Below are positions 3,872-46,200 of a stretch of DNA of 64,000 nt, piece by piece. How positions within the stretch are numbered: position 1 is the first letter of the stretch; each line of letters begins with the position of its first letter. Source of the DNA: a virus; IMG/VR virus record IMGVR_UViG_3300045988_176028. The stretch is one strand, 5' to 3'. The translations under genes were made by a program, and so were the position numbers. The notes beneath the pieces were generated by a model. It did not search any database. It saw nothing but the letters and a program-made list of their open reading frames with translations, and was not told where the DNA came from.

Positions 3872-3894
3872 TTTGTGTGAACAGTTCCAGTATA
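3872..3894 (-). promoter_or_regulatory. conserved promoter/operator motif, copy P3
   Basis: Gene-sense TATACTGGAACTGTTCACACAAA, 23 nt upstream of the ATG at 3849. Confidence 0.6.
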
Positions 3895-12360: not shown

Positions 12361-15300
12361 TTGACCGCAAAAACCAATATCCGCTATCGCGTGGGAGCTG
12401 ACGTAGGACTCAACAGTCTAGGATTCTCGGCAATCCAACTCGACGCCAACGGCAACCCAATCACACTACTCAAAACCCTCAGCTACATTCACGACGGCGG
12501 AGTAGACCCAACCCAAAACAAGTCCGGCACCACCCGCAAGGCCATGGCCGGAATCGCCCGACGTACCCGCAACATGCGCAAACGCCGCCGCCACCGTCTC
12601 AACCAACTCGACCGTCAGCTCTACCAACTGGGATATCCGGTGGACGAAGTGCCGGAAAGCGAACACGGACTCTACGAATACTGGAACGTCCGTTCCGCAT
12701 TGGCGACCGCCTACGTCCCCGACAAGGACAAGCGTGACCGGATGATGGTCATGGCTATCCGACATATCGCACGCCATCGCGGTTGGCGCAACTCCTATAG
12801 TCGGGTCGAAACCCTGTTCGAGGACGTGGAGCCGTCCGACCAGTACAAGGATTTGAAACAGCGAGTGGAGACCCGTCTTGGAATGAAACTAGACGAGGAT
12901 ATGACCCCGGCGCAACTCGTCGCATTGACGCTTTCAGACCGTGATGAGAACTTCATGAGGGTTCGTACCAGCACAAAATACGGTGAGGGTGTTCTGCCAA
13001 GCCGTCTCATGCAGTCCGACAATGCGCGTGAACTCCGACGCATCTTCACCGTCCAGCAAGTGCCCGAGGACGTTTGGAAGCCCATCCTGCGTACCGTGTT
13101 CCACTGCGCATCCCCCAAGGGTTCCGCAGAGAAGCATGTCGGAACAGACCCGCTCGACCAGACCCAGAAGAGAGCGTTGAAGGCCAGCATCGCCTTCCAG
13201 AAGTACCGTATCCTCAACGTCATCACCAACCTGCGTATCCGACGCAAAGGCGAAGCATCCCGACCGTTGACCGTCAACGAGAAACAGGATGTATACGAAC
13301 TGCTCACCACCGCCAAGGAAGACTTGGAATGGTTGGACGTGTGCGCCGTGCTTGACATCGAACGCAACGAACTCAAAGGCGTCGGCACCCTCACCCATGA
13401 CGGGGAGGAAAGAATCGGTAACAAGCCACCCGTCTTGGACACTGTCATCCGACTCCACGGCATCAAAAACACCAAGCTCCGCAAGATGATGGACGCATGG
13501 TGGAACACGGCCACCGAGACCGAACAGGCCGCGATGATTCGACTCCTGTCCAACACGGTTGACTTGGACAAGGTGCGCGACCTCATCGAATACGCCTCCC
13601 CCATCGAATTCATCGACGGGTTGGACGAAGACCTGCTCACCCCGTTGGACTCCATCAGTCTTCCAGTCGGACGTGCCGCCTACTCCGAAAAAACCCTCAC
13701 CCGACTGTCCAAACGCATGTTGGAAACGGAAGATGATTTGCATTATGCGATTCGCCACGAGTTCAACGTGCCCGCAGACTGGAAGCTTCCGGTTCCACCT
13801 GTTCAGGAGCCGACCGGCAATCCTGCCGTTGACCGAGTGTTGAAAGCGTTCAACCGTTTCCTCAGCCAGTGCGAACAACAGTATGGCATTCCGGAAAGCA
13901 TCGCCATCGAAACCACGAAGGAATCGTTCTCGTCCATCGCGTTCGGACGCACGCTCGACTATGAGCGCCGTCAACGTCGGGACAAGGACAATCAGACGCG
14001 TGCCGCAATCCGTGAGGATATGAGGAAGCAACTGTCCAACGGCGGAAGCTTCAAAGTCCACGACTACGACATTCGCCGTTGGGAAATCGTCCAATCGCAG
14101 AACAACACATGCCTGTACTGTGGTGCGACCAGTCCACGATTCAGTTTCGATAAGTCGGAACTCGACCATATCGTTCCCCGTCGTGGTGTCGGTTCGGACA
14201 GCAAACGCACCAACATGGCCGCAGTATGCCCCGAATGCAATGCCAACAAGTCGAACATTCCGTTCGCCGTCTGGGTGCATTCCGACTATGCGAAAGCGCA
14301 CGGCATCACCATGAATGATGTCATCGCACGAGTGAACCAGCTGATGTTCCCACCATCCATGAACCGCAAGCAGGTCAGTCAGGTGAAAAAGGCCATCATC
14401 AGCCGACTCAAGCAGACCGAACAGGACGAGCCGTTGGACAATCGTTCCATCGAATCCGTGGGCTGGATGGCCGACGAACTCCACCGCCGACTCGATGGAC
14501 GATACGCCAACAAAACGGTGAAAGTGTCCACGTTCCCCGGCTCCATCACCTATGAGGCGCGACGCGCTTCCGGCATCGACGGGCAAATCCACTTCATCGG
14601 CGCACAGTGGAAGACCCGACTCGACCGCCGACACCATGCGGTTGACGCTTCGGTCATCGCCATGATGAACCAGAGTGTCGCTCTCCGTCTTGCCGAACGC
14701 CACTATCTACGCGAATCCCAACGCCTGTGCGGGACCCCGTTCGGACAGGCGGACTGGAAGCAGTATCCGAATGAGAACACTCCCGGCTACGACCAATACC
14801 AGCAATGGAGCGGACAGATGAAGAATCTGCTCCACCTGTTGAACAAGGGTTTGGACGAGGACACCATTCCGGTCGTTCGGAGCCGCCGCCTCCGCTTGGG
14901 CAACAGCACGGCGCATGATGCGACGGTGAAACCGTTGCAATACGTGCGACTGGGAGACGCCATGCCGACCAGTCTCATCGACCATGCGCTCACCCCGCAA
15001 GTGTGGAAGGCATTGACCGGATTGTCGGATTATGACCCTCAGAATGGTCTGCCCGCTAATCCGAAACGTGTCATCACAGCCTTGGGTGAAGTATGCCATG
15101 CGAAGGATGAAATCGGTTTCCTTCCGGGCAACAATGCCCAATTGTTCGTCAACGGTGGAGCCGCCGATATTGGCGGAACCATCCATCATGCCCGTATCTA
15201 CCGTTGCGAACAGGTGTTGAAGAACGGGAAACGCAAGACGTTCTATGGCATGGTGCGCGTGTTCCAATGCGATTTGATGAAACGCAGGAAGAACACCGAC

Positions 15301-15687
15301 CTGTTCCGAACCCCGTTACATCCCGCCGACGTGTCCATCCGGTATGCGGACGGCAAGGTCAGGGACGCCATCCGACAGGGACACGCAACCTGCATCGCAC
15401 GACTCACCGTCAACGATGAAATCAAGTTGACACCTGAGATGATGAGGGACATGTGTCCTGAATATGCGAACATGTTCCACACAGATTCCGGCGTCGAACG
15501 ACGATTCATCGTGGCCGGCTTCCCCTCCCCTATCCAGTTCAGACTAGTTCCCTCCGTCATTGCAGAAGAAGGATTAAGTAAGATGGTTGAACAAGGTTTG
15601 GAGGTTCCCCCCAAGGTCGAGAAGATGTTCAAACTGCACACCTTCGTTCCAGTGGTCAATAAGATTGGACATGTTTTAGAGCAGTAA
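12361..15687 (+). CDS. cas9: Cas9, type II-C (actinobacterial-size, 1108 aa)
   Basis: RuvC-I motif YRVGADVGLNSLGFSAI. Arg-rich bridge helix GIARRTRNMRKRRRHR. HNH motif ELDHIVPR...CPECNANKSN. RuvC-III motif RRHHAVDASVIAM. Followed directly by cas1 and cas2, with no csn2 or cas4. Confidence 0.95.
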   Translation: MTAKTNIRYRVGADVGLNSLGFSAIQLDANGNPITLLKTLSYIHDGGVDPTQNKSGTTRKAMAGIARRTRNMRKRRRHRLNQLDRQLYQLGYPVDEVPESEHGLYEYWNVRSALATAYVPDKDKRDRMMVMAIRHIARHRGWRNSYSRVETLFEDVEPSDQYKDLKQRVETRLGMKLDEDMTPAQLVALTLSDRDENFMRVRTSTKYGEGVLPSRLMQSDNARELRRIFTVQQVPEDVWKPILRTVFHCASPKGSAEKHVGTDPLDQTQKRALKASIAFQKYRILNVITNLRIRRKGEASRPLTVNEKQDVYELLTTAKEDLEWLDVCAVLDIERNELKGVGTLTHDGEERIGNKPPVLDTVIRLHGIKNTKLRKMMDAWWNTATETEQAAMIRLLSNTVDLDKVRDLIEYASPIEFIDGLDEDLLTPLDSISLPVGRAAYSEKTLTRLSKRMLETEDDLHYAIRHEFNVPADWKLPVPPVQEPTGNPAVDRVLKAFNRFLSQCEQQYGIPESIAIETTKESFSSIAFGRTLDYERRQRRDKDNQTRAAIREDMRKQLSNGGSFKVHDYDIRRWEIVQSQNNTCLYCGATSPRFSFDKSELDHIVPRRGVGSDSKRTNMAAVCPECNANKSNIPFAVWVHSDYAKAHGITMNDVIARVNQLMFPPSMNRKQVSQVKKAIISRLKQTEQDEPLDNRSIESVGWMADELHRRLDGRYANKTVKVSTFPGSITYEARRASGIDGQIHFIGAQWKTRLDRRHHAVDASVIAMMNQSVALRLAERHYLRESQRLCGTPFGQADWKQYPNENTPGYDQYQQWSGQMKNLLHLLNKGLDEDTIPVVRSRRLRLGNSTAHDATVKPLQYVRLGDAMPTSLIDHALTPQVWKALTGLSDYDPQNGLPANPKRVITALGEVCHAKDEIGFLPGNNAQLFVNGGAADIGGTIHHARIYRCEQVLKNGKRKTFYGMVRVFQCDLMKRRKNTDLFRTPLHPADVSIRYADGKVRDAIRQGHATCIARLTVNDEIKLTPEMMRDMCPEYANMFHTDSGVERRFIVAGFPSPIQFRLVPSVIAEEGLSKMVEQGLEVPPKVEKMFKLHTFVPVVNKIGHVLEQ

Positions 15688-15708
15688 CCACCGCTTCTAA
15701 TCGTTTCT

Positions 15709-15766
15709 AAAAAGGAAAGGGTCTACCAAAAACCATCTAAGGTTATCAGTAGACCCTTTCCTTTTT
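15709..15766. terminator. strong inverted repeat between cas9 and cas1 (terminator/attenuator-like)
   Basis: AAAAAGGAAAGGGTCTAC ... GTAGACCCTTTCCTTTTT: an 18-bp perfect stem with a 22-nt loop and a T-run, placed directly before the cas1 RBS AGGAGG. Confidence 0.6.
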
Positions 15767-15777
15767 AGGAGGTTGAT

Positions 15778-16668
15778 ATGGCAAAAGGGTGGCGAGTCAT
15801 CGACTGCACCGCAATGACCGGCAGACTGACCTACAAGCGCGGACAACTCGTCGTGGAACACCACGATACGGAGACGCGGATACCGTTGGCCGATACGGCG
15901 GTGCTGCTGCTCGGTATACAAACAACCGTCTCCACAGCACTATTGCAGCAATTGGCGGTCTTCGACGTGGAAGTGCTCATCTGCCAATGGAATCAGACAC
16001 CAATCGCGGCAATGCAATCATGGAACAAACCCAACACCCGTTCCGCCGCCCGTCAGAACGCACAACAGGAAATGAGCCTACCGGCAAGAAAAGCCGCATG
16101 GCAGAAAATCATACGAGCGAAAATACTAGGACAATCCCACGTACTCGACAAACTCAACTTGGACGGAGGGGAACTCTTAAGAAGTCTAGCCGTCCAAGTC
16201 CACTCCGGCGACCCGAACAACATCGAAGGACAGGCGGCACGCGAATACTGGCATCACATGTTCTCTGAAGAACAATTCCGCCGATTCCCCGGATATGGCG
16301 AAGGGCACAACGCTCAACTCGATTACGCGTACACGGTACTGCGTGGATTCCTGATTAAGTCCATCTGCACAGCGGGACTCTCCCCCACCATCGGCATACA
16401 TCACCATTCAGCCAGCAACTATTTCTGTCTGGCAGACGATTTGATAGAACCGTTCCGACCGGCCATCGACTACCAGATAAGCCAACTACCGGACGGACCG
16501 TTGGACTCGGAAATGAAACAGCAGATAGTGCTGTCCGTCAACAGCCAATTCAACCCAAAAGAACTAACCATCCCATCACTGGTGGACGAATTTTGTGGAC
16601 AATACGCGCAATACTGCGAAGGCTGGCTGGACAAACTACCCGTCCCCGTCTTCGGAAAAAGGCGCTAA
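15778..16668 (+). CDS. cas1: Cas1 integrase
   Basis: 296 aa. Motifs NIEGQAAREYW, NAQLDYAYTVLRG and GIHH....N.F.LADDLIEPFRPAID are typical of type II Cas1. Confidence 0.92.
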   Translation: MAKGWRVIDCTAMTGRLTYKRGQLVVEHHDTETRIPLADTAVLLLGIQTTVSTALLQQLAVFDVEVLICQWNQTPIAAMQSWNKPNTRSAARQNAQQEMSLPARKAAWQKIIRAKILGQSHVLDKLNLDGGELLRSLAVQVHSGDPNNIEGQAAREYWHHMFSEEQFRRFPGYGEGHNAQLDYAYTVLRGFLIKSICTAGLSPTIGIHHHSASNYFCLADDLIEPFRPAIDYQISQLPDGPLDSEMKQQIVLSVNSQFNPKELTIPSLVDEFCGQYAQYCEGWLDKLPVPVFGKRR

Positions 16669-16670
16669 AA

Positions 16671-17012
16671 ATGAAGAGAGATAAGGATAACGGCATGTGG
16701 ACGCTGGTCATGTACGACCTACCCATTACAACGAGAGAGGATGCGGGAGCCGCGAACAGATTCAACCATCTACTCTCTGATTTAGGTTTCGTTCGAGTGC
16801 AATATTCCGTCTATGCAAGATATACCCCCACCCAATCAGGCGGTCGTTCTGCGTTAAAGTATATTCAAGCCGGACTACCTCCCCACGGCAACGTGCGAGT
16901 ACTCTGCGTAACGGACAATCAATGGTCTGATTCACTGAAGTACATCGATAAAAAACAGCAGACCACAGACGAACAGCCGGGGTTACTGACGCTTTTTGAC
17001 GACGAAGAATAG
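16671..17012 (+). CDS. cas2: Cas2
   Basis: ATG is 2 nt after the cas1 stop. MWTLVMYDLP...RF...L...GF.RVQYSVY matches the Cas2 ferredoxin-fold N-terminus. An alternative start at 16695 is possible. Confidence 0.85.
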   Translation: MKRDKDNGMWTLVMYDLPITTREDAGAANRFNHLLSDLGFVRVQYSVYARYTPTQSGGRSALKYIQAGLPPHGNVRVLCVTDNQWSDSLKYIDKKQQTTDEQPGLLTLFDDEE

Positions 17013-17033
17013 TTTAAAAACGTTGATATGAAG

Positions 17034-17066
17034 CCTTTTGCCCAAACTCGTAGTTTGAGCAAAAGG
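17034..17066. repeat. 15-nt inverted partial repeat forming a hairpin with the first CRISPR repeat
   Basis: CCTTTTGCCCAAACT-cgt-AGTTTGAGCAAAAGG. The single non-Watson-Crick position is a G:U pair only in minus-strand RNA. The left arm is the exact complement of the repeat variant at 17501. Confidence 0.6.
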
Positions 17067-17716
17067 TAATACGACATATATTCAAACCTGTTCGCCATAT
17101 GCTATCGTAAGAGTGAGTTTGAGCAAAAGGTAATACGACATATATTCAAACTGATGTCGCACGCGGATTAACGCTCTGGAGTTTGAGCAAAAGGTAATAC
17201 GACATATATTCAAACCACAAGCACACTGAATGTACGTCGTTGAAGTTTGAGCAAAAGGTAATACGACATATATTCAAACTTCAAAAATGGCTATTTTCCA
17301 ACGTTTTAGTTTGAGCAAAAGGTAATACGACATATATTCAAACTGTCCAGTGATTTCCCTCTCCTCACCGGAGTTTGAGCAAAAGGTAATACGACATATA
17401 TTCAAACTAAAAATGAAAGGATTGAAGAAAACATAAGTTTGATTAAAAGGCAATACAACATATATTCAAACCAAAACGGGAACAGGCATTGAACGGTGGG
17501 AGTTTGGGCAAAAGGTAATACGACATACATTCAAACTGCGAGTTTCCCTTCAGTGTGATTAAAAGGCAATACGACATATATTCAAACTGAAGCATTCAGT
17601 GCTTACGCGTCCGAAAAGTTTGAGCAAAAGGCAATACGACATATATTCAAATCAGGCTGCATATTTTCGTCAAAATCGACAAGTATAAATAAGGAAAATA
17701 CGACATATATTCAAAC
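17052..17716. CRISPR. CRISPR array: 11 repeats of 36 bp, 10 spacers
   Basis: Consensus AGTTTGAGCAAAAGGTAATACGACATATATTCAAAC. Repeats start at 17052, 17116, 17180, 17244, 17308, 17372, 17436, 17501, 17552, 17617 and 17681. Spacers are 28-29 nt, except a 15-nt spacer at 17537-17551. Repeats 7-11 carry substitutions and the last is degenerate in its first 18 nt. The pairing logic suggests crRNAs are read from the minus strand. Confidence 0.95.
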
Positions 17717-17847
17717 AAAAATTCAAACAAAATACCTAACAAAGAATAAGCCGGTGTTTCGCCACTCCCACCGGCGAGGAGCTGTTCACACAAAGACGCG
17801 GAGTAGGAGAAGGGTGGAGAGAAAAACACCCGTAGACTCCGCTTTTT
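17681..17847 (+). ncRNA. degenerate terminal repeat plus structured tail (alternative tracrRNA candidate B, or array trailer)
   Basis: The last 20 nt of the repeat are retained exactly (AATACGACATATATTCAAAC). They are followed by an A-rich linker, the hairpin GCCGGTG...CACCGGC, a GCTGTTCACACAAAG motif fragment, and the terminator hairpin GCGGAGT...ACTCCGC plus TTTTT (17798-17847). Confidence 0.3.
17798..17847 (+). terminator. intrinsic terminator downstream of the CRISPR array
   Basis: GCGGAGT-(loop with inner stem GGGTG/CACCC)-ACTCCGC followed by TTTTTG. Confidence 0.6.
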
Positions 17848-18053
17848 GTTTGGCGTTTGACATGGCTTGGTTGTTTCCCATCAGTGAGTTCATGTCGTGA
17901 ACACTGGCATGTATGCGTGAGTCAAGAGGGTGCAAGGCATACGGCTTGCTGACAGTCCTTCATGGATTTCAGGATTGTCGTCCATCGCGCATGTGAGAGT
18001 CATGCCATGGATTGTCCCACGAGCTTTAGGGGTATAAAAAGTGTGGGACTTTG

Positions 18054-18125
18054 TGCGGGAGACGAGATTCGAACTCGCGATACTTGCTTGGAGGGCAAGG
18101 GTGATGACCTTTTCACTACTCCCGC
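18054..18125 (-). tRNA. tRNA-Gly (anticodon UCC), non-canonical C33
   Basis: Hand-folded cloverleaf. Acceptor GCGGGAG/CTCCCGC, T-arm GCGAG-TTCGAAT-CTCGT, anticodon arm CTTGC-CCTCCAA-GCAAG. CCA is not encoded. Confidence 0.7.
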
Positions 18126-18244
18126 AATAGGAGGGGATGGATTGTGTTTGCGGGCTGGAAAGCACTACATGCAGAGAAAAAATGTTTACGACCATTCCAA
18201 ACTATTATGGGATGGAAGACTCGCAATCAGAAACCCATTCCCAG

Positions 18245-18332
18245 CGGAGTCGGAGGGATTCGAACCCTCGAACCGTATGAAACGGTTAACACCTTAGCAG
18301 GGTGCCCCTATCGGCCACTCAGGCACGACTCC
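18245..18332 (-). tRNA. tRNA-Ser (anticodon GCU), long variable arm
   Basis: Acceptor GGAGTCG/CGACTCC, anticodon loop CTGCTAA, variable arm AACCGTTTCATACGGTT, T-arm GAGGG-TTCGAAT-CCCTC. Confidence 0.8.
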
Positions 18333-18371
18333 GAAGTTTCGACACGCCAAAAACAGCCGGTCGAAACTTAG

Positions 18372-18442
18372 CTCCCCATGATGGACTCGAACCACCTCTA
18401 AAGGTTCCAAAGACCCGTGTGCTGCCATTACACTAATGGGGA
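18372..18442 (-). tRNA. tRNA-Gln (anticodon UUG)
   Basis: U1:A72 with G73 discriminator, as in bacterial tRNA-Gln. Anticodon loop CTTTGGA, T-arm GGTGG-TTCGAGT-CCATC. One mismatch at the top of the anticodon stem. Confidence 0.7.
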
Positions 18443-18474
18443 ATGTGCAGACCGTTTTGACGGCCCGCGAATAA

Positions 18475-19320
18475 TTATTTGGATTTTGAAATCAGCTTGT
18501 CAATGTCCGCGCCCAACTGCCTTAACTGGGCGAAAGAGTTGGCGACGTTGTTTTGCGCCGTTTCCTCTCTCTGCTGAGCGGCTTCCATCAGCTTCTTGCT
18601 GTTCGCATCCAATTCGGCGGCATGCTGTTCAGCCTTCTTGGTTCGGAGGTCGATTTCCTGTGACGCCTTGTCCAAACGGTTGACTGCGTCAGCTTCCGCC
18701 TTGCTGATAATCTGTTCGGCTTGTTTCTTGGCCGCGTCCAACTGGATGGCAACCTTATCGTCGGTTTCCTTTTTCAGTTTGGCGCATTCCTGTTCAAGCT
18801 TCTGCTTCTTATCCTGTGCGGCGGTCATCATCTGTCTGGTGGTTTCCGTCGCGGAGTCGAGCCGCTTCTGGGATTCATCCTTGGCCTGTTGGAGAATCTG
18901 TTCGGCTTGCGTGCGGGCCTGTTCCAGCTCCTCACGTTTCTTCGACTCGTAAGTGTTTTTCAACGTTTGGAATTCTTTGCCGAGGCTGGTGCCTAATTCC
19001 TGCATCGGGTTTTCCGACGCTTGACGGGCGTCCTGCAAGTCGGCGTTCAACCGTTCAATCTGCTGGCGGAGGGATTCAGCTTCCTGCTCCCGTTTGCCGA
19101 GTTCGGATTGACGCTTGTCCAAGACCATGTTTTTTTCCGTTAACTGGCGTTGCAGATTCCAAATCTGTGTTTCCAACCCGTTCACGTACTGTTCAACGGA
19201 ATCCTTGCGATAACCGTTGAATCCGGTGGGGAGGTTGAGTGGTTGTACCTGTGGCTGGGTCATTCCTTCCACGGTGAGAGCGTGGGAGGAGATGACCCGT
19301 GTTTCATCAGACATGGTCAT
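18475..19320 (-). CDS. DivIVA-domain coiled-coil protein
   Basis: Start at ATG 19320 (MTMSDETRV...). N-terminal LPTGFNGYRKDSVEQYVNGLETQI matches the DivIVA signature F...RGY....V..F. The rest is a long heptad coiled coil. The longer ORF, which starts at 19713, runs over three tRNA genes and is rejected. Confidence 0.7.
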   Translation of the reverse strand: MTMSDETRVISSHALTVEGMTQPQVQPLNLPTGFNGYRKDSVEQYVNGLETQIWNLQRQLTEKNMVLDKRQSELGKREQEAESLRQQIERLNADLQDARQASENPMQELGTSLGKEFQTLKNTYESKKREELEQARTQAEQILQQAKDESQKRLDSATETTRQMMTAAQDKKQKLEQECAKLKKETDDKVAIQLDAAKKQAEQIISKAEADAVNRLDKASQEIDLRTKKAEQHAAELDANSKKLMEAAQQREETAQNNVANSFAQLRQLGADIDKLISKSK

Positions 19321-19355
19321 TTTGAGTTCCTTCTTTTCTGGTTGAAAAACACGAG

Positions 19356-19428
19356 AGCCTAGAGCGGGGGTCGAACCCGCGACCTTCTGTTCCGGAGACA
19401 GACGCTCTATCCACTGAGCTATCAAGGC
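19356..19428 (-). tRNA. tRNA-Arg (anticodon CCG)
   Basis: D-arm GCTC-AGTGGATA-GAGC, anticodon arm TCTGT-CTCCGGA-ACAGA, T-arm GCGGG-TTCGACC-CCCGC. One U:U mismatch in the acceptor stem. Confidence 0.75.
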
Positions 19429-19485
19429 GATGGGGCGAAACCTATGGGGAATCGCCACTGTAAAGGAAGAACCATTCATGGTTCG

Positions 19486-19568
19486 TGCTTCGGGAGGGAA
19501 TCGAACCCTCACGTCAATATGACAAAGCTTTTTGAGAGCTTCGCGTTTACCTGTTTCGCCACCGAAGC
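19486..19568 (-). tRNA. tRNA-Leu (anticodon CAA), long variable arm
   Basis: Acceptor GCTTCGG/CCGAAGC, anticodon arm AAGCT-CTCAAAA-AGCTT, variable arm GTCATATTGAC, T-arm GAGGG-TTCGATT-CCCTC. Confidence 0.8.
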
Positions 19569-19686
19569 GGGATGAGCCTCCGCAGAGGCTCAGCAGACCG
19601 TTCCCGCGACTGGGCGGGTCGGCTGAAAACTGGAACCGCCATGAGACGGCTCCGAAGCCTTCTCGAACAACCTGTAAGAGAAGTAG

Positions 19687-19757
19687 TATGTCACGCTGGA
19701 ATCGAACCAACATCTACGGTTTTGGAGACCGTGGCTCTACCGTTGAGCTAGTGACAT
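19687..19757 (-). tRNA. tRNA-Trp (anticodon CCA)
   Basis: Acceptor ATGTCAC/GTGACAT, anticodon arm ACGGT-CTCCAAA-ACCGT, T-arm GTTGG-TTCGATT-CCAGC. Confidence 0.75.
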
Positions 19758-20022
19758 ATGGGGTGGGCTACCAACGTAGACGCCACCCTCTCGTTGTCCT
19801 GTAGTTAGCGTCCAAGTCCAACTCGATAGACGCGGCATGGCGGGTTGGATTTTACCGCCAACGGCAAGGTCGTGGGCTGCTAAGTACCCCGTTTCACCGT
19901 TCTTCCCCTTCGGTCATCAACCACCTGATTAAGGCAGGGAAACTCTTATCCTCCACAAGACCATGTAGGATTATTCGAGCAATGCCATCAGTTTCACGGA
20001 CAGCTACCTCCATGAAACCTAG

Positions 20023-20096
20023 CACCCAAGGTTGGAGTCGAACCAACGACGTCCGGTTTAGGAAACCGGCGCTCTATTCCGCTGAGCTACAAGGGT
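20023..20096 (-). tRNA. tRNA-Arg (anticodon CCU), acceptor stem with two U:U mismatches
   Basis: D-arm GCTC-AGCGGAATA-GAGC, anticodon arm CCGGT-TTCCTAA-ACCGG, T-arm GTTGG-TTCGACT-CCAAC. Acceptor ACCCTTG/CTTGGGT pairs at only 5 of 7 positions. Confidence 0.6.
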
Positions 20097-20316
20097 GTAT
20101 GTCTCCGTTCCGCGAGGACACCCGCAACGCGTCTTCCGGATTGGAGTCATTCACATCAGCCGTTCGCTACTTACCATTGTTGCGGGGCAATGGCTTTCTC
20201 TAATGGGATGATGGTGTTTTACGCGCATTCCACGCGGACGCTTTTAATTGCCCATCCAATACGACGAGCCACAGGATTACACTCCCGATTTCCCGCAGTT
20301 ACGCCAACTGCGGTCG

Positions 20317-20389
20317 TGCCCCCCGTGGGATTCGAACCCACAACCCACGACTTAAAAGGACGCTGCTCTAACCATTGAGCTAGAGGGGC
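20317..20389 (-). tRNA. tRNA-Lys (anticodon UUU)
   Basis: Acceptor GCCCCTC/GGGGGGC, D-arm GCTC-AATGGTTA-GAGC, anticodon loop CTTTTAA, T-arm GTGGG-TTCGAAT-CCCAC. One mismatch in the anticodon stem. Confidence 0.75.
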
Positions 20390-20459
20390 GGAACAGGAGG
20401 TGAAGGAACGAAAACCCACCTCCCGCTTGGATTAGTTAAAGGAGAACCATCAAGGTTCG

Positions 20460-20543
20460 TGCTCCGAGAGAGATTTGAACTCTCACACCTTTTCAGGTAA
20501 AGCATTTTGGGTGCTTCGCGTCTACCGATTTCGCCATCAGAGC
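20460..20543 (-). tRNA. second tRNA-Leu-like gene (anticodon CAA), non-canonical C33, long variable arm
   Basis: Acceptor GCTCTGA/TCGGAGC, anticodon arm AAGCA-CCCAAAA-TGCTT, variable arm ACCTGAAAAGGT, T-arm GAGAG-TTCAAAT-CTCTC. Confidence 0.65.
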
Positions 20544-20808
20544 GTCGCGCGATTGAGGGACGTGCGTTTTCGTTCTTACAGAACGACCCATTGATTTTCG
20601 TACCACCCTCCCCGCTTACAAATCAACAAAAGTCAGAGATTGGAGGAAACTGATTTTTTGTTTACAAAGTTTTTCCTTCAAGTTTGGAGAGTCTGTTTTG
20701 CAGGAGTCGCTTAGCACGCACATCAGTTTCCTCTATTTAGAGTTTGGATAAAAGCCCGTAAGGCAATTATCCAAACATTGTTTTGAATACGGTATGCATT
20801 CAAAATCG

Positions 20809-21177
20809 TGGAGCCGGAGGGAATCGAACCCTCGTCCTTGAAAACGTTGATGATGTTTTCTACATGTTTAGCCATCTCATTTATATATGTTGAAAGTTCC
20901 AGTCGAAGAGGCACCCCGGAACAGTTTTGCAACTCAGTCATGAAACGATGAACAGTTGCCGTTCACCGAGTTTTTGCTGTCCTTTCTTTTTCAGAATCGC
21001 CTTACAGCAAATCAGTGACCCTGTTCTTCCTTCACCGTGTTTCAGGCGGCGAGCTGGAAGTTACGCGAAGAATTCGTCTTGGCGTTTATTGTTTGACATG
21101 GATTGATGACGGTTGTCCACGTCAGCCTCCGACATGCTTGCATTATCTTGATTTTCAAGTCGAAACCTGTCGGCCCC
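20809..21177 (-). ncRNA. ssrA: tmRNA (ssrA)
   Basis: 5' end GGGGCCGACAGGTTTCGAC. 3' end GGACGAGGGTTCGATTCCCTCCGGCTCCA. The acceptor stem GGGGCCG/CGGCTCC carries the G3:U70 alanine identity pair. Internal tag frame GCC AAG ACG AAT TCT TCG CGT AAC TTC CAG CTC GCC GCC TGA encodes AKTNSSRNFQLAA plus stop. About 369 nt. Confidence 0.85.
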
Positions 21178-21228
21178 AAAATGCCGTCTTCCTTCCGGTT
21201 TTCCGTCCGAGCTTCCCATAGGTGTGGT

Positions 21229-21318
21229 TCAGAACCAATAGAATGGTTGGCTGGGATTTCCAGCCGGAAGGTTGACAGCGGTTTTGCCTGTCATGGTTTT
21301 GTCTTCAAGCGTTTTCAT
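21229..21318 (-). CDS. possible 29-aa micro-ORF upstream of ssrA
   Basis: AGGAGAAGC-ATG; MKTLEDKTMTGKTAVNLPAGNPSQPFYWF; stop 52 nt before the tmRNA 5' end. No other support. Confidence 0.2.
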   Translation of the reverse strand: MKTLEDKTMTGKTAVNLPAGNPSQPFYWF

Positions 21319-21620
21319 GCTTCTCCTAGAACTTCCAATTGAACTGGTTTTCTGGTTTTGGATAGGCGTGATAGTTCCTGAAGATTCGACCATGATGGGC
21401 AAGTCTTCATATCGAACATGATTTGATGGGCTTTAAGTCCTATCGAACCATGTTTCCTTATCTCTATTCATTTTTCAAACGGGCGGCAACATTCAGGGAG
21501 TGTTCCTTACTGGGTAAGGTCTTTACCCCGGTTGCCTTGGTGACTGTTCCAGTAGCGGGCTGGATATGAGAAGCGGTCTTCTCACAGTCTGTTCGCGCGT
21601 GATGTTTTTATTGAACCTCG

Positions 21621-21643
21621 TTTGTGTGAACACTGCCAGTATA
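21621..21643 (-). promoter_or_regulatory. conserved promoter/operator motif, copy P7 (points toward ssrA and the tRNA cluster)
   Basis: Gene-sense TATACTGGCAGTGTTCACACAAA. There is no ORF of 60 aa or more downstream before ssrA. Confidence 0.55.
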
Positions 21644-21773
21644 GCAGTTCTAGGAAACGTGTCAAATCAGAAACGAAAAACAAGGTTTTCCAAGGCGTGT
21701 CGCCCTCAAAAACCTTCCACACCAGCCTTGGAAACTTGGACAACAACGTCGCTCACAGGCTACACTCCCCTAC

Positions 21774-22046
21774 ATGCAGTCCAAGCAAATACGAGAAGCA
21801 ACCACAGTCGCATATATAGAAGACCAGCTCAAGTCGGAAGACCCCACTCTCATACAGTCGGCCACGGGGAATCTAGCCAGACTGTATGGAATGACCACGC
21901 TCTCCCAACTGACCGGTTTGGCGAGGCCATCCCTCTACCGAAGCCTATGCGGTCAAGGAAACCCATCCTTCCAAACCATGTGCAGGGTATTGGACGCCAT
22001 GGGGTACACAGTCACGGTGAAGCGTAAGGAGACGGAACATGAGTGA
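21774..22046 (+). CDS. HigA/addiction-module-antidote-like HTH protein (no toxin partner seen)
   Basis: 90 aa. ...LARLYGMTTLSQLTGLARPSLYRSLCGQGNPSFQTMCRVLDAMGYTVTV matches the antidote-family pattern (G..R..LY+.L...GNP.F.T...VL.A.G). Overlaps the repA start in ATGAGTGA. Confidence 0.55.
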   Translation: MQSKQIREATTVAYIEDQLKSEDPTLIQSATGNLARLYGMTTLSQLTGLARPSLYRSLCGQGNPSFQTMCRVLDAMGYTVTVKRKETEHE

Positions 22047-23094
22047 CAGGCAAGTGGAACAGAACGCTCTAGACATTGACATACCCGGCATGGAGTTGGA
22101 TGTTCGACGGGTCAACCTGTTGGACGATATAGAAGCCCGCGAGCCGAACAGTATGGAAATATGGTATGGGCATTCCATTCTCACCGCCACACTGTTTCCA
22201 CCAGCCCAACCGTCCGATGATGTGGATTTCGTCAGCAAGTCGAACGGACGGTTGGAATACATGCTTGAAGCTGGCGTGACGGGTGATGGGGATGATAGGA
22301 AACGCCGGTTCCCGTTCGGCAAATATCCGAGACTGTTGATGGCTTGGATGGCTAAGCAGATTCGTGCGGCGAAAGGCCATAAGACGAGGAATGTTGACCC
22401 GGAGACGAAGACCATCACCATTCCAAGCATCTACCAGTTGTGTGAGGAAATGGGATTGCCGCATGGCGGGCGTACCGCGAAGAGCGTGCAGGAACAGTTG
22501 GAACTGTTGTTGGCTTGCCGTATCAGTATTCGCGCGTCCGGCACGGGCAAGGGGTTGAATGTGAGGGATACGGCCTATCTGCCTATCGTTCAGGCCGTGC
22601 GCATTATCAATGATGAGAAGAATGTGGGCTATTCCGGTGCCACGTTCCGTCTGACCGATGAAGTGTATGAACGGTTGAGTCGTGAGTCGGCTCCGTTCGA
22701 TACGAGAGTGTCCACTTACCTTTTGAAAGGCAGGTCGGTCATGCCTTACGACATTTACATTTGGCTGACTGGCAGTATGAAGAATCTTCGCCGTGACCTT
22801 CCGGTGAGTTGGGATTGGCTGTATGAACGGTTCGGAGACCAGATTGCGGTCAAGAAGTCTTTTCGGCGCATGTTCCGTCAATCGTTGGAGAAGGTCAAGA
22901 AGGTGTATCCGGGGTTGAATGTTGAGTGTCCAACGTATGAGGATTACATTATTCTGCATCCGAGTCCCACGTCGGTTCCTACCCGTGCTGTCCGTGAGGT
23001 TGAGGTGGGTGCTAATGGGGATGTGTTCGAGGTGGCTTTGCATTCGTTGCAATCGGTTCAACGGAAAGGTGTACGAAAGGCCACGTCAGATTGA
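22039..23094 (+). CDS. repA: RepA-family plasmid replication initiator (paralog 1)
   Basis: 351 aa. KYPRLLMAWM..., ...YDIYIWLTGSM......VSWDWLYERFG......FRRMFRQSLEKVKKVYPGL follows the RepA C-terminal-domain pattern shared with the two genes at 54.4-56.3 kb. An iteron field starts at its 3' end. Confidence 0.7.
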   Translation: MSDRQVEQNALDIDIPGMELDVRRVNLLDDIEAREPNSMEIWYGHSILTATLFPPAQPSDDVDFVSKSNGRLEYMLEAGVTGDGDDRKRRFPFGKYPRLLMAWMAKQIRAAKGHKTRNVDPETKTITIPSIYQLCEEMGLPHGGRTAKSVQEQLELLLACRISIRASGTGKGLNVRDTAYLPIVQAVRIINDEKNVGYSGATFRLTDEVYERLSRESAPFDTRVSTYLLKGRSVMPYDIYIWLTGSMKNLRRDLPVSWDWLYERFGDQIAVKKSFRRMFRQSLEKVKKVYPGLNVECPTYEDYIILHPSPTSVPTRAVREVEVGANGDVFEVALHSLQSVQRKGVRKATSD

Positions 23095-23519
23095 GTTGAC
23101 CGTGGCCTTTCGGACACCTTGGAGAGTATTGGTGTCTGAAAGGCCATGTGTGGGCGGGTGTCTGCGTGGCTTTTCGGACACCTTTCGCATGGCTTTTCAA
23201 ACACCTCCCAACGGGTTGAACGGTTTCTCGACGTGGCCTTTCACGCACCCTCGTATACGCTACGGATTGCACGCGCCTTTCCAGCTTTAATTTATCCACT
23301 AGTTTTTCGTTGGAATTTCAACCATTCCACACGCTTATCCACATTTCCACAGGCAGAACGTCAAACATTCCGTGGACTAACAGGCACCTTTAGTGGCGTT
23401 TCAAACACCATGACGATTATGAATCATGCCGGACATGGACTATCAAACACCATCAGCATGGACTATCGAACACCCTTTTATGGGGTTTCCGACACCTTTC
23501 CGTGGACTAACAGGCACCT
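23063..23519. repeat. iteron field (about 12 copies of an ~18-bp unit), putative oriV 1
   Basis: Unit is approximately (C/G)RTGGCNTTTC(G/A)(G/A)ACACC. Examples: GTGGCCTTTCGGACACC 23102, GTGGCTTTTCGGACACC 23166, ATGGCTTTTCAAACACC 23189, GTGGCCTTTCACGCACC 23233, GTGGCGTTTCAAACACC 23393, GGACTATCAAACACC 23447, GGACTATCGAACACC 23460, GGGGTTTCCGACACC 23482. Inverted copies at 23063-23087 and 23131-23148. CGTGGACTAACAGGCACCT occurs twice (23371, 23501). Confidence 0.7.
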
Positions 23520-23606
23520 CGCATGGTAGAAAAACCGTTACGGGAGTAAGGCTCAACCGGCATGGTTATATATTATATGCTCATAGTTTCTTATAGTTTC
23601 TTATCA

Positions 23607-23771: not shown

Positions 23772-24281
23772 ATGAGACTCCTATACAAAATCACAAGCTT
23801 ATATCGCAAAGCCCGTTGGCTCATGTGGCTGGCTGGAATGTTGCCCACCACGCTCATTCCCCTGCTGGGTTACGGAATGCACGCTTTGAACATCGCAAAG
23901 GATAGGCAGGAGTTGGCGACAGATAATCCGGAGCTTGCTTCGGAGGAGACGACTGGCTCCCTATTTGATTGGATGACCGGCGAGACGGTGGGAAGAATCA
24001 TTGGAATCATTACGATTCTTGGCATTATTTTCATCCTACTGTTGATTATATTGCAAATCTTCTCGTTCATTGGTGCCCGAACGTCAGTATCCGGAACAGA
24101 CCATGACACGGCCACCAAGGAGGCCAACCGTAGGCAAGCAGACTTGGGCGAAATGGACGTGGAGCCGAATGATGGGGACGTGGCCTTTCAAACACCTTCC
24201 CAATCGAAGCCAAAAAGGAAAGGCAAGCCGAAACCGGCTCCCGCCACTGAGGGCAACGAGGATGACTGGTTCATCGACTAG
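23772..24281 (+). CDS. hypothetical membrane protein
   Basis: Two predicted TM helices (WLMWLAGMLPTTLIPLLGYG and IIGIITILGIIFILLLIILQIF) and a Lys/Pro-rich tail. The start is uncertain; the ORF track begins at 23706. Confidence 0.4.
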   Translation: MRLLYKITSLYRKARWLMWLAGMLPTTLIPLLGYGMHALNIAKDRQELATDNPELASEETTGSLFDWMTGETVGRIIGIITILGIIFILLLIILQIFSFIGARTSVSGTDHDTATKEANRRQADLGEMDVEPNDGDVAFQTPSQSKPKRKGKPKPAPATEGNEDDWFID

Positions 24282-24326
24282 TCTGAATGGTGTTTAAAAA
24301 GCCACGCGCCGACCGGCTCGTGCGGA

Positions 24327-35292: not shown

Positions 35293-35315
35293 TTTGTGTG
35301 AACAATTCCAGTATA
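35293..35315 (-). promoter_or_regulatory. conserved promoter/operator motif, copy P13
   Basis: Gene-sense TATACTGGAATTGTTCACACAAA (consensus copy). Confidence 0.6.
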
Positions 35316-35742: not shown

Positions 35743-35765
35743 TTTGTGTGAACAATTCCAGTATA
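35743..35765 (-). promoter_or_regulatory. conserved promoter/operator motif, copy P14
   Basis: Gene-sense TATACTGGAATTGTTCACACAAA. Confidence 0.6.
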
Positions 35766-36454: not shown

Positions 36455-36477
36455 TTTGTGTGAACAATTCCAGTATA
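36455..36477 (-). promoter_or_regulatory. conserved promoter/operator motif, copy P15
   Basis: Gene-sense TATACTGGAATTGTTCACACAAA. Confidence 0.6.
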
Positions 36478-37304: not shown

Positions 37305-37327
37305 CTTGTGTGAACAATTCCAGTATA
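37305..37327 (-). promoter_or_regulatory. conserved promoter/operator motif, copy P16
   Basis: Gene-sense TATACTGGAATTGTTCACACAAG. Confidence 0.6.
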
Positions 37328-38157: not shown

Positions 38158-41100
38158 CTACTTCTTGTGGCGTGCGGTCACGGTCGTGTTTCCGCGACAG
38201 TGGGCGAGCATCAATCCCATTCCCACGAGTGTGAACAGAATGACCGTCATGATAGGCGTGTTCACACCGGTTTGGGCGAGTTGGCGAATCGTCTTCACGA
38301 TGGCCGGTGTCGCCGGTGGAATGTACGAGTTGGTGAACTCAGGTTGGGTTCCAGTGGTTGTGACCATGCTGGGGGTTGTGGTCGGATTGTTCTCATCCTC
38401 ACCGGCATCCCCGTCGGTCTTGTCGGCCTTAGCGGTCGGCATGACGGGCATGGTGCTGGAATCCTTCGCCGTATCGTCCGTCGGGTCGTATTGGACTTTG
38501 GCGGTCAGGTTGCCTTGCAGGTTGTCGCTTACGGTGACGGTCACGTGATGTTCCGTCTTGTCGTAGGTGACGTTCTTCTCGCCGGTGTTCTTCTCGCGAA
38601 TCACATACCGGTATTCACCGCAATCATCCACTCCATCATTGTCTCTACCGTAGGTGAGCGGCTTGAACTGGATGTTGCCCTGCTTGTCGTTCTTCTCACT
38701 GTCGATGACATTGCCCTTGTCGTCCACAAGTTCGAACTCGAATTCGTAGGCTTGCAGTTCACGTCCGGTCAGATTCTTCTTGGCCGACAGTTCGACCAAC
38801 ACGTCTTCCGGCTGGTACGTGTTCTGGAAGAGGATGCTCTTTTCGCTGGCTTTGCCGTTGGAGTAGGCGACGCTGGCGGCGAGCTTGTGGCTCTTCGTGT
38901 CCTCGGTGACGGTGATGGTGACGGTGTGGCTGGTGGTGTCGTAGGCGACGCCGCCCAATGTTCCGTCCTGTTCGTCAACCGTGTACGTGTACACGCCGGT
39001 CTTGTCGAACGTGAGCTTGTCGAATTCGAGGGTCCCGTCGCCTTCGCGTGCAGTTACCTTGTCGGATTGCGCGTCGCGTGGAACGCGGGCGAACTGTTTG
39101 GCTTGGAGCAGGTTGCCGTTGGAATCCTTCAATTCGGCGGAGAATTCGTTGTCGTTCAGGTCACGTCCGGTCAGATGTTTGGCCGCTTCGAGTCGCACGC
39201 TAACCGGTGTCGGAGTATACGTGTTGTCAAATCGGATGTCATTGGTCTGACGGTCGGCGGTGGCAGCGAGCATGCCGTCTTGGTCGGTGACGGTGACGGT
39301 CACATCGTATTCCTGAGTGGAGTAGCCGATGGTCTTGTCCGTTCCGGCGAGTTCCTTCACGTGATACGTGTATACGCCGGGCATGGTGTAGACCATTTGA
39401 CCGAATGTGAAACCGCTTCCCTTGTTGGACACGGTTTGCGTTCCGTTTTGGCTTCCGACTGGCATTGGCATGTCGTTCATGCTGATGGCGTTGCCGTCCG
39501 CGTCGCGTGCGGATACCGCGTTCAACTGGAACTTGAATTCACCGTCCTGCGGAACGCGGCTGGTTGCCGTATCCGTGTTGACGATGTTTTTCACGCCGCT
39601 GATAGAGTATCCGACGTTCTTCGGACTGTAATGGTTGGTGAACGTGATGTTCTTGCCGTTAGCGCCGGTGGTCGGGGTGACGGTCTTGGATACGACGGTC
39701 AGCTTGCCCGTATGGTCAACATCCTTGACCACGTAGGTGATGGTCGCAACCGTCCCGTCCTTCGTGACGCCCGGAACGGTCGTATCCTGCTCCGACATGG
39801 TGAACACGTAGGTGCCTACGAGCGGGAACGACAGTTGGTCGAATCGGATGTTGCCCTGCCGGTCGTTCCGTTTCGTCTGGTCGGCGTTCGACACGTTGGC
39901 GGGCGCGGACTGTTGTTGGAGCGTGAATGCGAAGTCTTCGCCCTTGAGCGTGTACTTGTTGCCCTTGGGGGAGGTCATCTTCTTCACTGCGGTCGGATTG
40001 TCCGTGGCGGGTTGGGCATGGTACGTGTTGGTGAATTCCGGAATGTTGGTTCCGTTATCATACTTCACGTCGGCCAACAGTTGGCCTTCGCCATTGTCGG
40101 TGACGGTGACTTTCACATGATGTTTCGTAGCATCATAGGTGACGCCGCCCCTGTCGCCGTGGACTTCGCTGAGCGTGTAGTCGTACACTCCCGTCTTCTT
40201 GTAGGAGATGGTGTCGAACAGGATGTTGCCCTGCTGGTCGTTGGTTTTCACCGTTCCAGCCTGACCGCCTGTCTTGTCCTCGACGCATTTGAACTCGTAT
40301 TGTCCGGCTTGCAGTTGGATGCCTGTATGGTCGGGGTCGTTGAGGGTCTTGTGCGCACGGAATTGTACGCTGACCGGCTTCGCCTGATACGTGTTCGTGA
40401 ACGTGGTCGGATAGGCCGCGTTCGTTCTGGTTTGGGCTTTCAACTGTCCGGTCAAATCGTCGGTGACGGTGATTTGCCACATTCCCATGTGGGAATCGTA
40501 GTTGACGCCGCCCGCCGACTGGCGGACTTCACGCACCGTGTAGGTGAACGTGCGGGTTTTGGCACCGTTCAACTGTTGGGCGGTGAACGTCAACGGTTGG
40601 AAGCTGATGTTTCCGTTTTGGTCGGCGTTCACGGTTTGCAACGGCTTGCCTACCGCCTGCTCGTTGTCGAACAGTTGGAATTGGAAGTCGGTGAGTTTCG
40701 CATGGCTGGCGTTCTTGTTGTCGAACGTCTTGTGTGCGGTGAGGCTCACGGTCACGTCCTTCGGCTGATACGTGTTGTGGAAGACCGGGGTCTTGTTCGT
40801 ATTGTCGTAAGAGGTGGAGGTTTTCAACTGTCCGTAACCGTTGTCGGTGACGTTGACGTGCATGGCGTGGACGGTCTGGTCGTAGGTGATGCCTTTGAAC
40901 TGTCCCGTCTTTTCCACGATACGGTAATCGTGTTCACCTACCGTATTGTAGGCGAGCTTGTCGAAGGTTAAGGTTCCGTCCGCATTGTTGGTCTTGGATT
41001 GGATGGTCTTGCCATTCTTGTCCTGCAATTCGAATGTGAACTCGTTGGCGTTCAACAGGCGGAGCGTGTGCTTCGGATTGTCGATTACCTTGCTGGCTTT

Positions 41101-45990: not shown

Positions 45991-46200
45991 GAAAACGGGA
46001 GAAGGGCTGAAAAGAAGCCCCCCCCCCGCGCGTTTTTTGATTGTTCAGTTATAAGTATGGAAAGCTGGTCTCAAGTACGGTTTGCAGGAGAGTTCCCAAG
46101 GCCAGCCTTCCGATTTTTGCCCGCTCCGACCATGCTTCTTCCAATCTTTGGCAACTGGTTGAAGCATGGTTTCATGTCGGGGAGGGCAAGGCTTTATCTG

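Follow-up and report, generated by a model that had tools for sequence, protein, structure and literature searches.

The IMG/VR virus record IMGVR_UViG_3300045988_176028, a stretch of 64,000 nucleotides (nt) that was analyzed at its full length and is called the window throughout, carries a gene for transfer-messenger RNA (tmRNA, ssrA) on its minus strand. A reading made from the sequence alone had named the hallmarks of this gene as its 5′ end, a G3:U70 pair in the acceptor stem, the T-loop, and an internal tag open reading frame (ORF) closed by a stop codon. Each of these features is found in the raw sequence (5′ end GGGGCCGACAGGTTTCGAC, T-loop GGTTCGATTCC, and G3 opposite U in the acceptor stem), and both of the tools proposed for verification recover the gene. 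ARAGORN calls a full-length tmRNA at 20808-21177 (-) with the tag AKTNSSRNFQLAA followed by a stop codon. With the Rfam tmRNA model RF00023, 20806-21177 (-) aligns to all 374 model positions (1-374) at a covariance score of 118.7 bits (E 9.3e-46), well above the gathering score of 47. The gene and its principal parts are located as follows:

20806-21177, minus strand: tmRNA (ssrA) gene of 372 nt, identified by ARAGORN and Rfam RF00023
21093-21124, minus strand: hairpin of pseudoknot 1 (PK1), upstream of the resume codon and holding the family-invariant block CAACCGT.ATCAA, placed by the Rfam alignment
21042-21083, minus strand: tag reading frame, from the resume codon GCC through AKTNSSRNFQLAA to TGA (ARAGORN coding part, gene positions 95-136)

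In the tRNA-like domain, the alanine identity pair G3·U70 lies in an acceptor stem of 7 bp, and the T-arm is closed by a loop of the GGUUCGAUUCC type. The tag frame reads GCC AAG ACG AAT TCT TCG CGT AAC TTC CAG CTC GCC GCC TGA; it thus opens with an alanine resume codon and closes with the canonical …LAA end before the TGA stop. The gene terminates in CTCCACGA, as do 18/18 related tmRNAs, and does not encode the 3′ CCA, which to our knowledge is not required for membership in the tmRNA family.

Conservation of the tmRNA structure

Extra tmRNA copies had been described in the sequence-only reading as known mainly from a few large phages, but this statement has been outdated since 2024, when the tmRNA of the megaplasmid pMP7017 was published (PMC10832533). 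That RNA is 397 nt long, bears the tag ANTVSSSRFTLAA, is highly transcribed, and has its gene flanked by that of the replicase on one side and by 20 arrayed tRNA genes on the other (Dineen et al., 2024, PMC10832533). Its gene (NZ_KM406416.1 120,876-121,272) was included in a comparison of 18 distinct plasmid tmRNA sequences that represent five sublineages and stem from metagenomic contigs, IMG/VR, and PLSDB. Identity to the window gene is 79-99.7% inside the window-type clade, and column identity to the pMP7017 tmRNA is ~73%. Every member of the plasmid family that was examined has the gene, namely 10/10 metagenomic copies (at 97.6-99.7% identity), 6/6 PLSDB plasmids, and the IMG/VR contigs. 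The commonest metagenomic variant is a single base (21016) apart from the window copy.

Across this set, the elements that define a tmRNA are retained while their sequences change. Acceptor pair 3 is G·U in 18/18 sequences, and pair 6 (C-G or U-A) has changed on both sides in seven of them. The clades differ by swaps at three of the five pairs in the T-arm, with both sides changed in seven sequences each. Helix 2a is formed by CUUGAAAAU/GUUUUCAAG in the window clade and by UAGCCUGC/GCAGGCUA in the pMP7017 clade, of which one member (L054) additionally shows an A-U to G-C change at one pair of this helix. The stem of the PK1 hairpin is kept although it has been wholly rewritten in the pMP7017 clade (CUGACGUGG/CCAUGUCA(A) against GGCAAGG/CCUUGCC), and both the loop block CAACCGT.ATCAA and the resume context ACGCCAA are invariant across the two clades. 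The second, knot-forming stem of PK1 comprises by eye just 3-4 bp (CGG/CCG) that lie within this invariant block and so are beyond the reach of covariation. Changes on both sides are also seen among window-type sequences in helix 5 and in a central stem of 10 bp; in L075, the penultimate tag codon is altered from GCC to GTC (Ala to Val), and its pairing partner in the helix has changed to match.

The tag itself is 13 codons plus stop in 18/18 relatives, with synonymous ACG/ACT and CGT/CGC changes, and its last three residues are LAA, LVA, or LTA. As the degron end is canonical, the earlier suggestion that a separate tag might mark proteins for a different fate finds no support here.

When each sequence was cofolded under constraints, acceptor stem, T-arm, and helix 2 formed in their canonical shape. 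This procedure replaced RNAalifold, which misses the canonical helix 2 and PK1 on the 18-sequence MAFFT alignment, where the deep clades are offset by one column. Because G3·U70, the T-arm, helix 2, the PK1 hairpin, and the 13-codon tag are all kept through many compensatory changes, the comparison indicates that the tmRNA gene is under purifying selection on its structure.

The replicon and its host

The tmRNA gene had further been assigned to accessory, plasmid-like DNA, and this assignment agrees with the RepB/RepA genes, iterons, and circularly permuted contigs of about 220 kb described in this section, as well as with the lack of phage structural genes considered further below. Replication of the element can be ascribed to the following features:

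22039-23094, plus strand: gene of a RepB-type replication initiator (Pfam RepA_C), divergent from the tmRNA gene, product 56% identical to the pMP7017 replicase
23068-23520, with further copies at 24179-24307, both orientations: iteron field on the 3′ side of the RepB-type gene, made up of 11 or more 20-mers (CGTGGCCTTTCGGACACCTT type)

The RepB-type protein is one of three RepA_C proteins encoded in the window, the others being located at 54396-55304 and 55401-56291. Its similarity to the pMP7017 replicase extends over 311 amino acids (aa; E 6e-127), while the other RepA proteins reach 34-36% identity, and all of these values are below the 70% backbone identity cut-off used by Dineen et al. 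(2024). The relationship to pMP7017 surfaced solely through the RepA protein search, in which megaplasmids of the pMP7017 family from B. breve and B. longum proved to be the nearest curated plasmids. At the DNA level, region 17500-22500 was compared by megablast and the tmRNA by blastn with phage and plasmid collections, and no PLSDB plasmid matched at the nucleotide level in the megablast search. On account of this missing nucleotide match, the sequence data place the plasmid as a separate lineage of the pMP7017 plasmid type. The iterons of pMP7017 are likewise 20-mers 3′ of repB, its minimal replicon lies on the other side of repB from the leader, and the region 5′ of its repB promoter is dispensable (PMC8313286); by analogy, the iteron field in the window probably represents the plasmid origin. 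The start of the RepB-type gene is overlapped by a HigA-like “addiction module antidote” gene (21774-22046, plus strand; PF21716, E 3e-15). It is an orphan without a partner toxin upstream and may regulate repB.

RepB was detected in 1547 blocks of the metagenome collection, on at least 1000 contigs. The longest RepB-bearing contigs cluster at 202-231 kb and contain the locus at very different offsets in independent assemblies, and they therefore appear to derive from a circular molecule of ~220 kb that was cut at arbitrary points. Gut metagenome assemblies, hundreds to thousands of them, contain exact copies of window proteins, and the proteins are named Bifidobacterium adolescentis in NCBI and UniRef. 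The GC content of the plasmid is 53%; that of B. adolescentis is ~59%. No description of a B. adolescentis lineage of these megaplasmids was found in the literature searched. More distant RepB-bearing loci in other Bifidobacterium and in Pseudoscardovia genomes (n = 7) have no tmRNA or tRNA within 10 kb.

Among the other genes of the window are FtsK/SpoIIIE-type proteins, toxin-antitoxin genes including YafQ, and a type II CRISPR-Cas locus beside the tRNA array (12361-17716, plus strand). The latter encodes Cas9 (1108 aa, 12361-15687), Cas1 (15778-16668), and Cas2 (16695-17012), followed by a CRISPR array at 17052-17716 with ~11 repeats of 36 nt (GTTTGAGCAAAAGGTAATACGACATATATTCAAAC) at a spacing of 64 nt. 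Two very large genes occupy 38158-50217 on the minus strand and encode a 2610-aa surface protein with nine FctA isopeptide domains and a 1338-aa protein without a family match. Both proteins are conserved exactly over hundreds of metagenomes, the 1338-aa protein being present in 498 blocks of the collection. A use of the tmRNA gene as integration site was considered and rejected, as no integrase was found in the window. Besides the record studied here, IMG/VR lists further contigs of the plasmid family as viral (L036, L042, L044, L045, and L058-L108, up to 204,736 bp), and even pMP7017 itself (L055). Since no virion genes were detected in the window, these family contigs are probably misclassified megaplasmids.

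A gene for SmpB had been reported as not visible in the window, and this holds: tblastn with E. coli SmpB yielded a best E value of 8.6, and no SmpB family was found among 67 window ORFs compared with Pfam. The search was extended to the complete pMP7017 (best E 3.0, none annotated) and to 747 kb of family loci from IMG/VR, anchored on the promoter motif described below, which add ~152 kb of unique sequence beyond the window as a sample of the family and not as one closed molecule (best E 0.10); smpB was detected in neither. The same query finds actinobacterial SmpB on other replicons with E values of 1e-22 to 1e-29. As neither smpB nor an encoded CCA was found, the plasmid tmRNA would need SmpB, alanyl-tRNA synthetase (AlaRS), and the CCA-adding enzyme of the host, and we infer that it uses host EF-Tu and RNase P as well.

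Promoter, leader, and tRNA array

Upstream and downstream of the tmRNA, the minus strand contains a promoter, a long leader, and an array of tRNA genes:

21638-21665, minus strand: near-consensus promoter TTGACA-16-TGcTATACT with an extended -10 TG
21621-21643, minus strand: plasmid-family promoter motif TATACTGGCAGTGTTCACACAAA, orthologue of the 34-bp pMP7017 motif AWAYATGYTATACTGAATATGTCCACATAAAAWA
3872-3894, 35293-35315, 35743-35765, 36455-36477, and 37305-37327, minus strand: other motif copies, each 20-45 nt upstream of a Shine-Dalgarno (SD) sequence and ATG of a small minus-strand gene
21178-21637, minus strand: structured 5′ leader between the motif promoter and G1 of the tmRNA
21229-21318, minus strand: micro-ORF of 29 aa (inner 21-aa version at 21229-21294) behind a conserved SD sequence and ATG, running through the long hairpin
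21183-21279, minus strand: long imperfect hairpin of ~100 nt, ending 5 nt before G1 of the tmRNA and followed by AUUUU, in the window-type clade only
20700-20805, minus strand: two hairpins directly 3′ of the tmRNA, without a U-run (z = -4.1)
19829-20000, minus strand: manA-like RNA motif (RF01745) between tRNA-Arg(CCU) and tRNA-Trp, 39.6 bits and thus below the gathering score of 55.2 (E 8e-8)
18053-20543, minus strand: nine tRNA genes, Leu-CAA (two copies), Lys-UUU, Arg-CCU, Trp-CCA, Arg-CCG, Gln-UUG, Ser-GCU, and Gly-UCC, identified by ARAGORN and Rfam

The promoter at 21665-21638 is the sole promoter-like site upstream of the tmRNA. Its -10 element and downstream part are formed by the motif copy at 21621-21643, 443 nt upstream of G1, and so the motif does point toward the tmRNA as the sequence-only reading had it. 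With up to three mismatches the motif occurs six times in the window and always on the minus strand, vs. 0 occurrences expected by chance, and it recurs in more than 54 stretches of related IMG/VR family contigs. It had been regarded as specific to this element in the form TATACTGGnAnTGTTCACACAA, but this sequence is the orthologue of a motif already published for pMP7017, with which it shares the core TATACTG…TGT.CACA.AA. The 34-bp pMP7017 version, AWAYATGYTATACTGAATATGTCCACATAAAAWA, overlaps the -10 element of 19 promoters and was deemed specific to pMP7017-type plasmids (PMC10832533). All window-type relatives have the motif at -455 to -466; for pMP7017 and L050 the position is -331/-347. 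In pMP7017 too, a single promoter-like site is present, TTGCCA-17-TATACT, located 326 nt upstream of its tmRNA.

Between promoter and tmRNA, a leader of 320-455 nt is found across the plasmid family, and leader and tmRNA together are common to 6/6 PLSDB family plasmids. The 455-nt leader fragment of the window (21178-21632) folds with a minimum free energy of -143.1 kcal/mol (z = -6.7), and with 91% column identity across the window-type sublineages the leader is more conserved than the tmRNA itself. Several leader helices are paired in both deep clades in 95% of the alignment cells, compared with 34-45% when the partners are slid, and 8/22 pairs have changed on both sides vs. 0-2 in the slid controls; the weight of this covariation is limited by the few independent lineages and by the derivation of the structure from the same sequences on which it was tested. 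One pair of the long hairpin is kept in L058 through a U>C/A>G double change. A search against Rfam gave no family for the leader at E ≤ 1. Taken together, the sequence comparisons indicate that the leader is more than a spacer. Two other interpretations of this region were rejected. Firstly, the micro-ORF does not represent a conserved small protein: its start site (SD and ATG) is invariant in the window-type clade, but L058 and L075 differ in frame and peptide, and members of the pMP7017 clade lack the ORF. Secondly, the leader is not the plasmid origin, as the iterons are situated on the other side of repB both in pMP7017 (PMC8313286) and here.

Downstream of the tmRNA, the two hairpins are probably processing elements rather than terminators, and the interval that leads from the tmRNA to the first tRNA gene contains no called terminator-like site. 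Because of this, and because the hairpins lack U-runs, co-transcription of leader, tmRNA, and the first tRNAs appears likely from the sequence. The nine tRNA genes that had been claimed to neighbor the tmRNA are indeed present, and none of them encodes CCA. The array also contains an ORF for a 281-aa coiled-coil protein (18475-19320, minus strand) with weak similarity to DivIVA (E 1e-3), a gene that occurs in all metagenomic copies; it is followed by a near-consensus promoter (18503-18474) ahead of the last three tRNAs. Among near-identical plasmid copies (L018, L020-L023, L036, and L075, compared with window positions 18000-20600) the tRNA content varies, while the tmRNA stays at least 97% identical; the array of L036, for instance, includes tRNA-Thr(UGU) and tRNA-Ser(CGA), neither of which is present in the window array. 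Codon use in the window ORFs (AAA 30%, CAA 34%, GGA 27%, TTG 25%, and AGG 11%) matches the tRNAs that are carried, and Dineen et al. drew the same conclusion for pMP7017 (PMC10832533).

Probable role of the module and comparison with known systems

The evidence establishes that a tmRNA gene is present, that a plasmid carries it, and that its structure is under purifying selection. Beyond this, we consider it likely that the gene encodes a functional one-piece tmRNA within a repB-proximal translation module, composed of leader, tmRNA, and tRNA array, of a ~220-kb conjugative-type megaplasmid of B. adolescentis that is a diverged relative of pMP7017, and that the role of this tmRNA is to provide added ribosome-rescue capacity. 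Transcription would start at the motif promoter and yield the long structured leader and the tmRNA, probably continuing into the first tRNAs. RNase P-type processing would then free G1 of the tmRNA, its 3′ end would be trimmed, and a host enzyme would add CCA. Host AlaRS could charge the RNA through G3·U70, and host SmpB and EF-Tu would bring it to stalled ribosomes, where translation would resume at GCC and append AKTNSSRNFQLAA, an LAA-type degron for host proteases. The plasmid might benefit from rescue capacity that is co-expressed with tRNAs for A-ending codons, or for G-ending codons read by a C34 tRNA, and that lowers its translational cost. Stalling at rare codons is the classic trigger of tmRNA tagging, and such stalls were reportedly found by Roche and Sauer in 1999 to recruit tmRNA. 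The locus is most economically read as a translation module made of RNA only, one that would relieve the sequestration of ribosomes by the plasmid.

Several points weigh against this interpretation. The region of PK2-PK4 fits the Rfam model poorly, with an overall alignment accuracy of 0.57, low posterior probabilities, and one element deleted; nested helices with compensatory changes are present in this region in the window-type clade. At position 21016 the window has A, where the commonest metagenomic variant has G, this A faces a C, and the resulting mismatch falls in a covarying stem whose pair is G-C in relatives and A-U in L075. The steps that follow transcription are all derived from the tmRNA family at large, and the smpB search of the remaining replicon covers a pan-sequence sample. 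Finally, the data of this analysis do not set the translation-support benefit apart from other roles.

One such role, speculative and already raised in the sequence-only reading as a counter to RNA-cleaving defense systems, would be insurance against nucleases. The tmRNA and the tRNA array would then replace host tmRNA and tRNAs cut by toxins or defense systems, or would clear non-stop complexes produced by the plasmid's own mRNA-interferase toxins, with translation support being secondary. Ribosome-dependent RNase-type toxins are carried by both plasmids (YafQ in the window; RelE/ParE and HigA/HigB-type modules in pMP7017), the HigA-like antidote gene is situated directly beside the module, and HigB is reported to cleave tmRNA in Mycobacterium tuberculosis (PMC3912914). 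An RNA ligase gene just after the pMP7017 tRNA array and the variable tRNA content of the plasmid variants, as an arms race might give, point in the same direction. However, the window shows neither an RNA-repair gene nor a partner toxin next to the module, and the plasmid tmRNA keeps a tRNA-like domain and a tag region of the standard kind, with no obvious escape changes among the plasmid sequences compared. We therefore regard a primary function in nuclease insurance as unlikely.

The structured leader leads to a different proposal, namely that it is a new cis-regulatory or processing RNA that gates the tmRNA-tRNA operon by the translational state of the cell or by the plasmid regulon. In the B. 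adolescentis lineage, the elements of such an RNA would be the invariant SD sequence and AUG and, behind them, the terminator-like hairpin at G1 of the tmRNA. The gating idea is speculative and in our view quite unlikely to be correct; if it were, the plasmid would sense and buffer its own translational burden and not merely carry a spare ssrA. The tmRNA finding by itself was to be expected from the pMP7017 paper of 2024 (PMC10832533); the leader is the single point that goes beyond the published literature and provides a concrete lead.

That the tmRNA is a hitchhiking or decaying copy without current function is very improbable and largely refuted by covariation. The poor match of the mid-molecule to the Rfam model and the stem-breaking variant at 21016 would fit such a copy, as would the failure of ARAGORN on the pMP7017 orthologue. 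Rfam does find the latter, however, and a negative ARAGORN result is thus unreliable for this plasmid family. Against decay, moreover, stand the presence of the gene in every family member examined, the preservation of its helices by compensatory changes over five sublineages, the invariant tag length, the near-consensus promoter, and the high transcription of the pMP7017 orthologue.

An interpretation of the element as a huge phage or phage-plasmid, and of the tmRNA as an ordinary phage-type auxiliary gene, seems extremely improbable. It can draw on the listing of family contigs as viral genomes in IMG/VR and on phage-like replication and recombination genes (a Gp2.5/Enc34-like single-stranded DNA-binding protein, an exonuclease VIII-like nuclease, and Lar). 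Yet a comparison of 59 window ORFs with PHROGs revealed no capsid, portal, terminase, or tail match save one weak tape-measure hit (E 5e-4), and the window features RepA/RepB with iterons as its replicon, as well as transfer genes of the FtsK/SpoIIIE type. For the related pMP7017, experiments have demonstrated a conjugative plasmid with ~1 copy per chromosome (PMC8313286, PMC10832533). None of 50,697 phage records was matched by blastn, and in wider searches only the tRNA-Arg of Vibrio phages matched.

A chromosomal contig with the only ssrA of the cell, a case that the sequence-only reading had singled out for checking, can practically be dismissed, since its only support, a related RepB cluster member on a 615-kb contig, could reflect integration or misassembly, whereas no RepB-bearing contig exceeds 1 Mb in any of the 1547 blocks, the full-length contigs of 202-231 kb are circularly permuted, plasmid replication and iteron features characterize the region, and neither housekeeping genes nor smpB were found in the 64-kb window.

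The plasmid-borne tmRNA can be set beside four known systems. Mycobacteriophages of the Bxz1 type (cluster C) have a tmRNA alongside large tRNA sets and rely on host SmpB, and the huge phages of Al-Shayeb et al. (described in 2020) are said to combine tmRNAs with large tRNA sets as well. As with phage-encoded tmRNAs, a mobile element here carries tmRNA and tRNA array and would need host SmpB, but the plasmid differs from them by the lack of a virion module in the window and of any blastn match among the phage records. Chromosomal one-piece tmRNAs (RF00023) resemble the plasmid RNA in the T-arm and the G3·U70 pair of the tRNA-like domain, in helix 2 and the PK1 hairpin, and in the alanine resume codon, the …LAA degron, and the stop codon inside helix 5. 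In contrast to these, the gene in the window is plasmid-borne, unlinked to smpB, preceded by a long structured leader under a plasmid-specific promoter, and atypical in PK2-PK4. Within the Actinomycetota, a tmRNA gene is also located on the 567-kb megaplasmid or chromid pCPAA3 of Curtobacterium pusillum (PMC10832533), and thus likewise on an extrachromosomal replicon. This chromid-sized replicon (CP018784.1) encodes a SmpB homologue (tblastn E 1e-25) and hence a self-contained rescue system, whereas the plasmid described here provides the RNA only.

The closest counterpart is pMP7017. In both plasmids, a RepB-type replicase gene is divergent from the tmRNA, behind which an array of tRNAs contains a manA-like motif, as reported for the tRNA region of pMP7017 (PMC10832533), and the family promoter motif is located 330-460 nt upstream of the tmRNA. 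The two tmRNAs agree in the PK1 block, the resume context ACGCCAA, the CTCCACGA 3′ end, and a 13-codon tag ending in L-x-A, and smpB is carried by neither plasmid (pMP7017 being complete, the present one represented by the window). Also alike are the gene order RepA, FtsK, FtsK, hypothetical protein, DUF2815-like protein, helix-turn-helix protein, and PD-(D/E)XK protein, small SecE and SecG homologues, YafQ toxins, and giant sortase-type surface proteins. On the other hand, at ~73% column identity most tmRNA helices are rewritten, the tags differ (AKTNSSRNFQLAA vs. ANTVSSSRFTLAA), and the tmRNA is 372 nt instead of 397 nt long. The leader of 455 nt, with its extra 3′ hairpin and micro-ORF, compares with one of ~330 nt in pMP7017, and the array of nine tRNAs with one of 18-20. 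Further differences concern the host (B. adolescentis vs. B. longum/B. breve), GC content (53% vs. 57%), and the CRISPR system (type II with Cas9 vs. type I-E).

Plasmid-borne tmRNA is thus not peculiar to pMP7017: within a wider family of Bifidobacterium megaplasmids, which IMG/VR annotates as viral contigs, the gene belongs to the conserved core and is under selection. The family includes a ~220-kb lineage, attributed to B. adolescentis, that is very common in human gut metagenomes. These comparisons support the idea that large plasmids of high-GC gut Actinomycetota carry an RNA-only translation module that relies on the proteins of the host.

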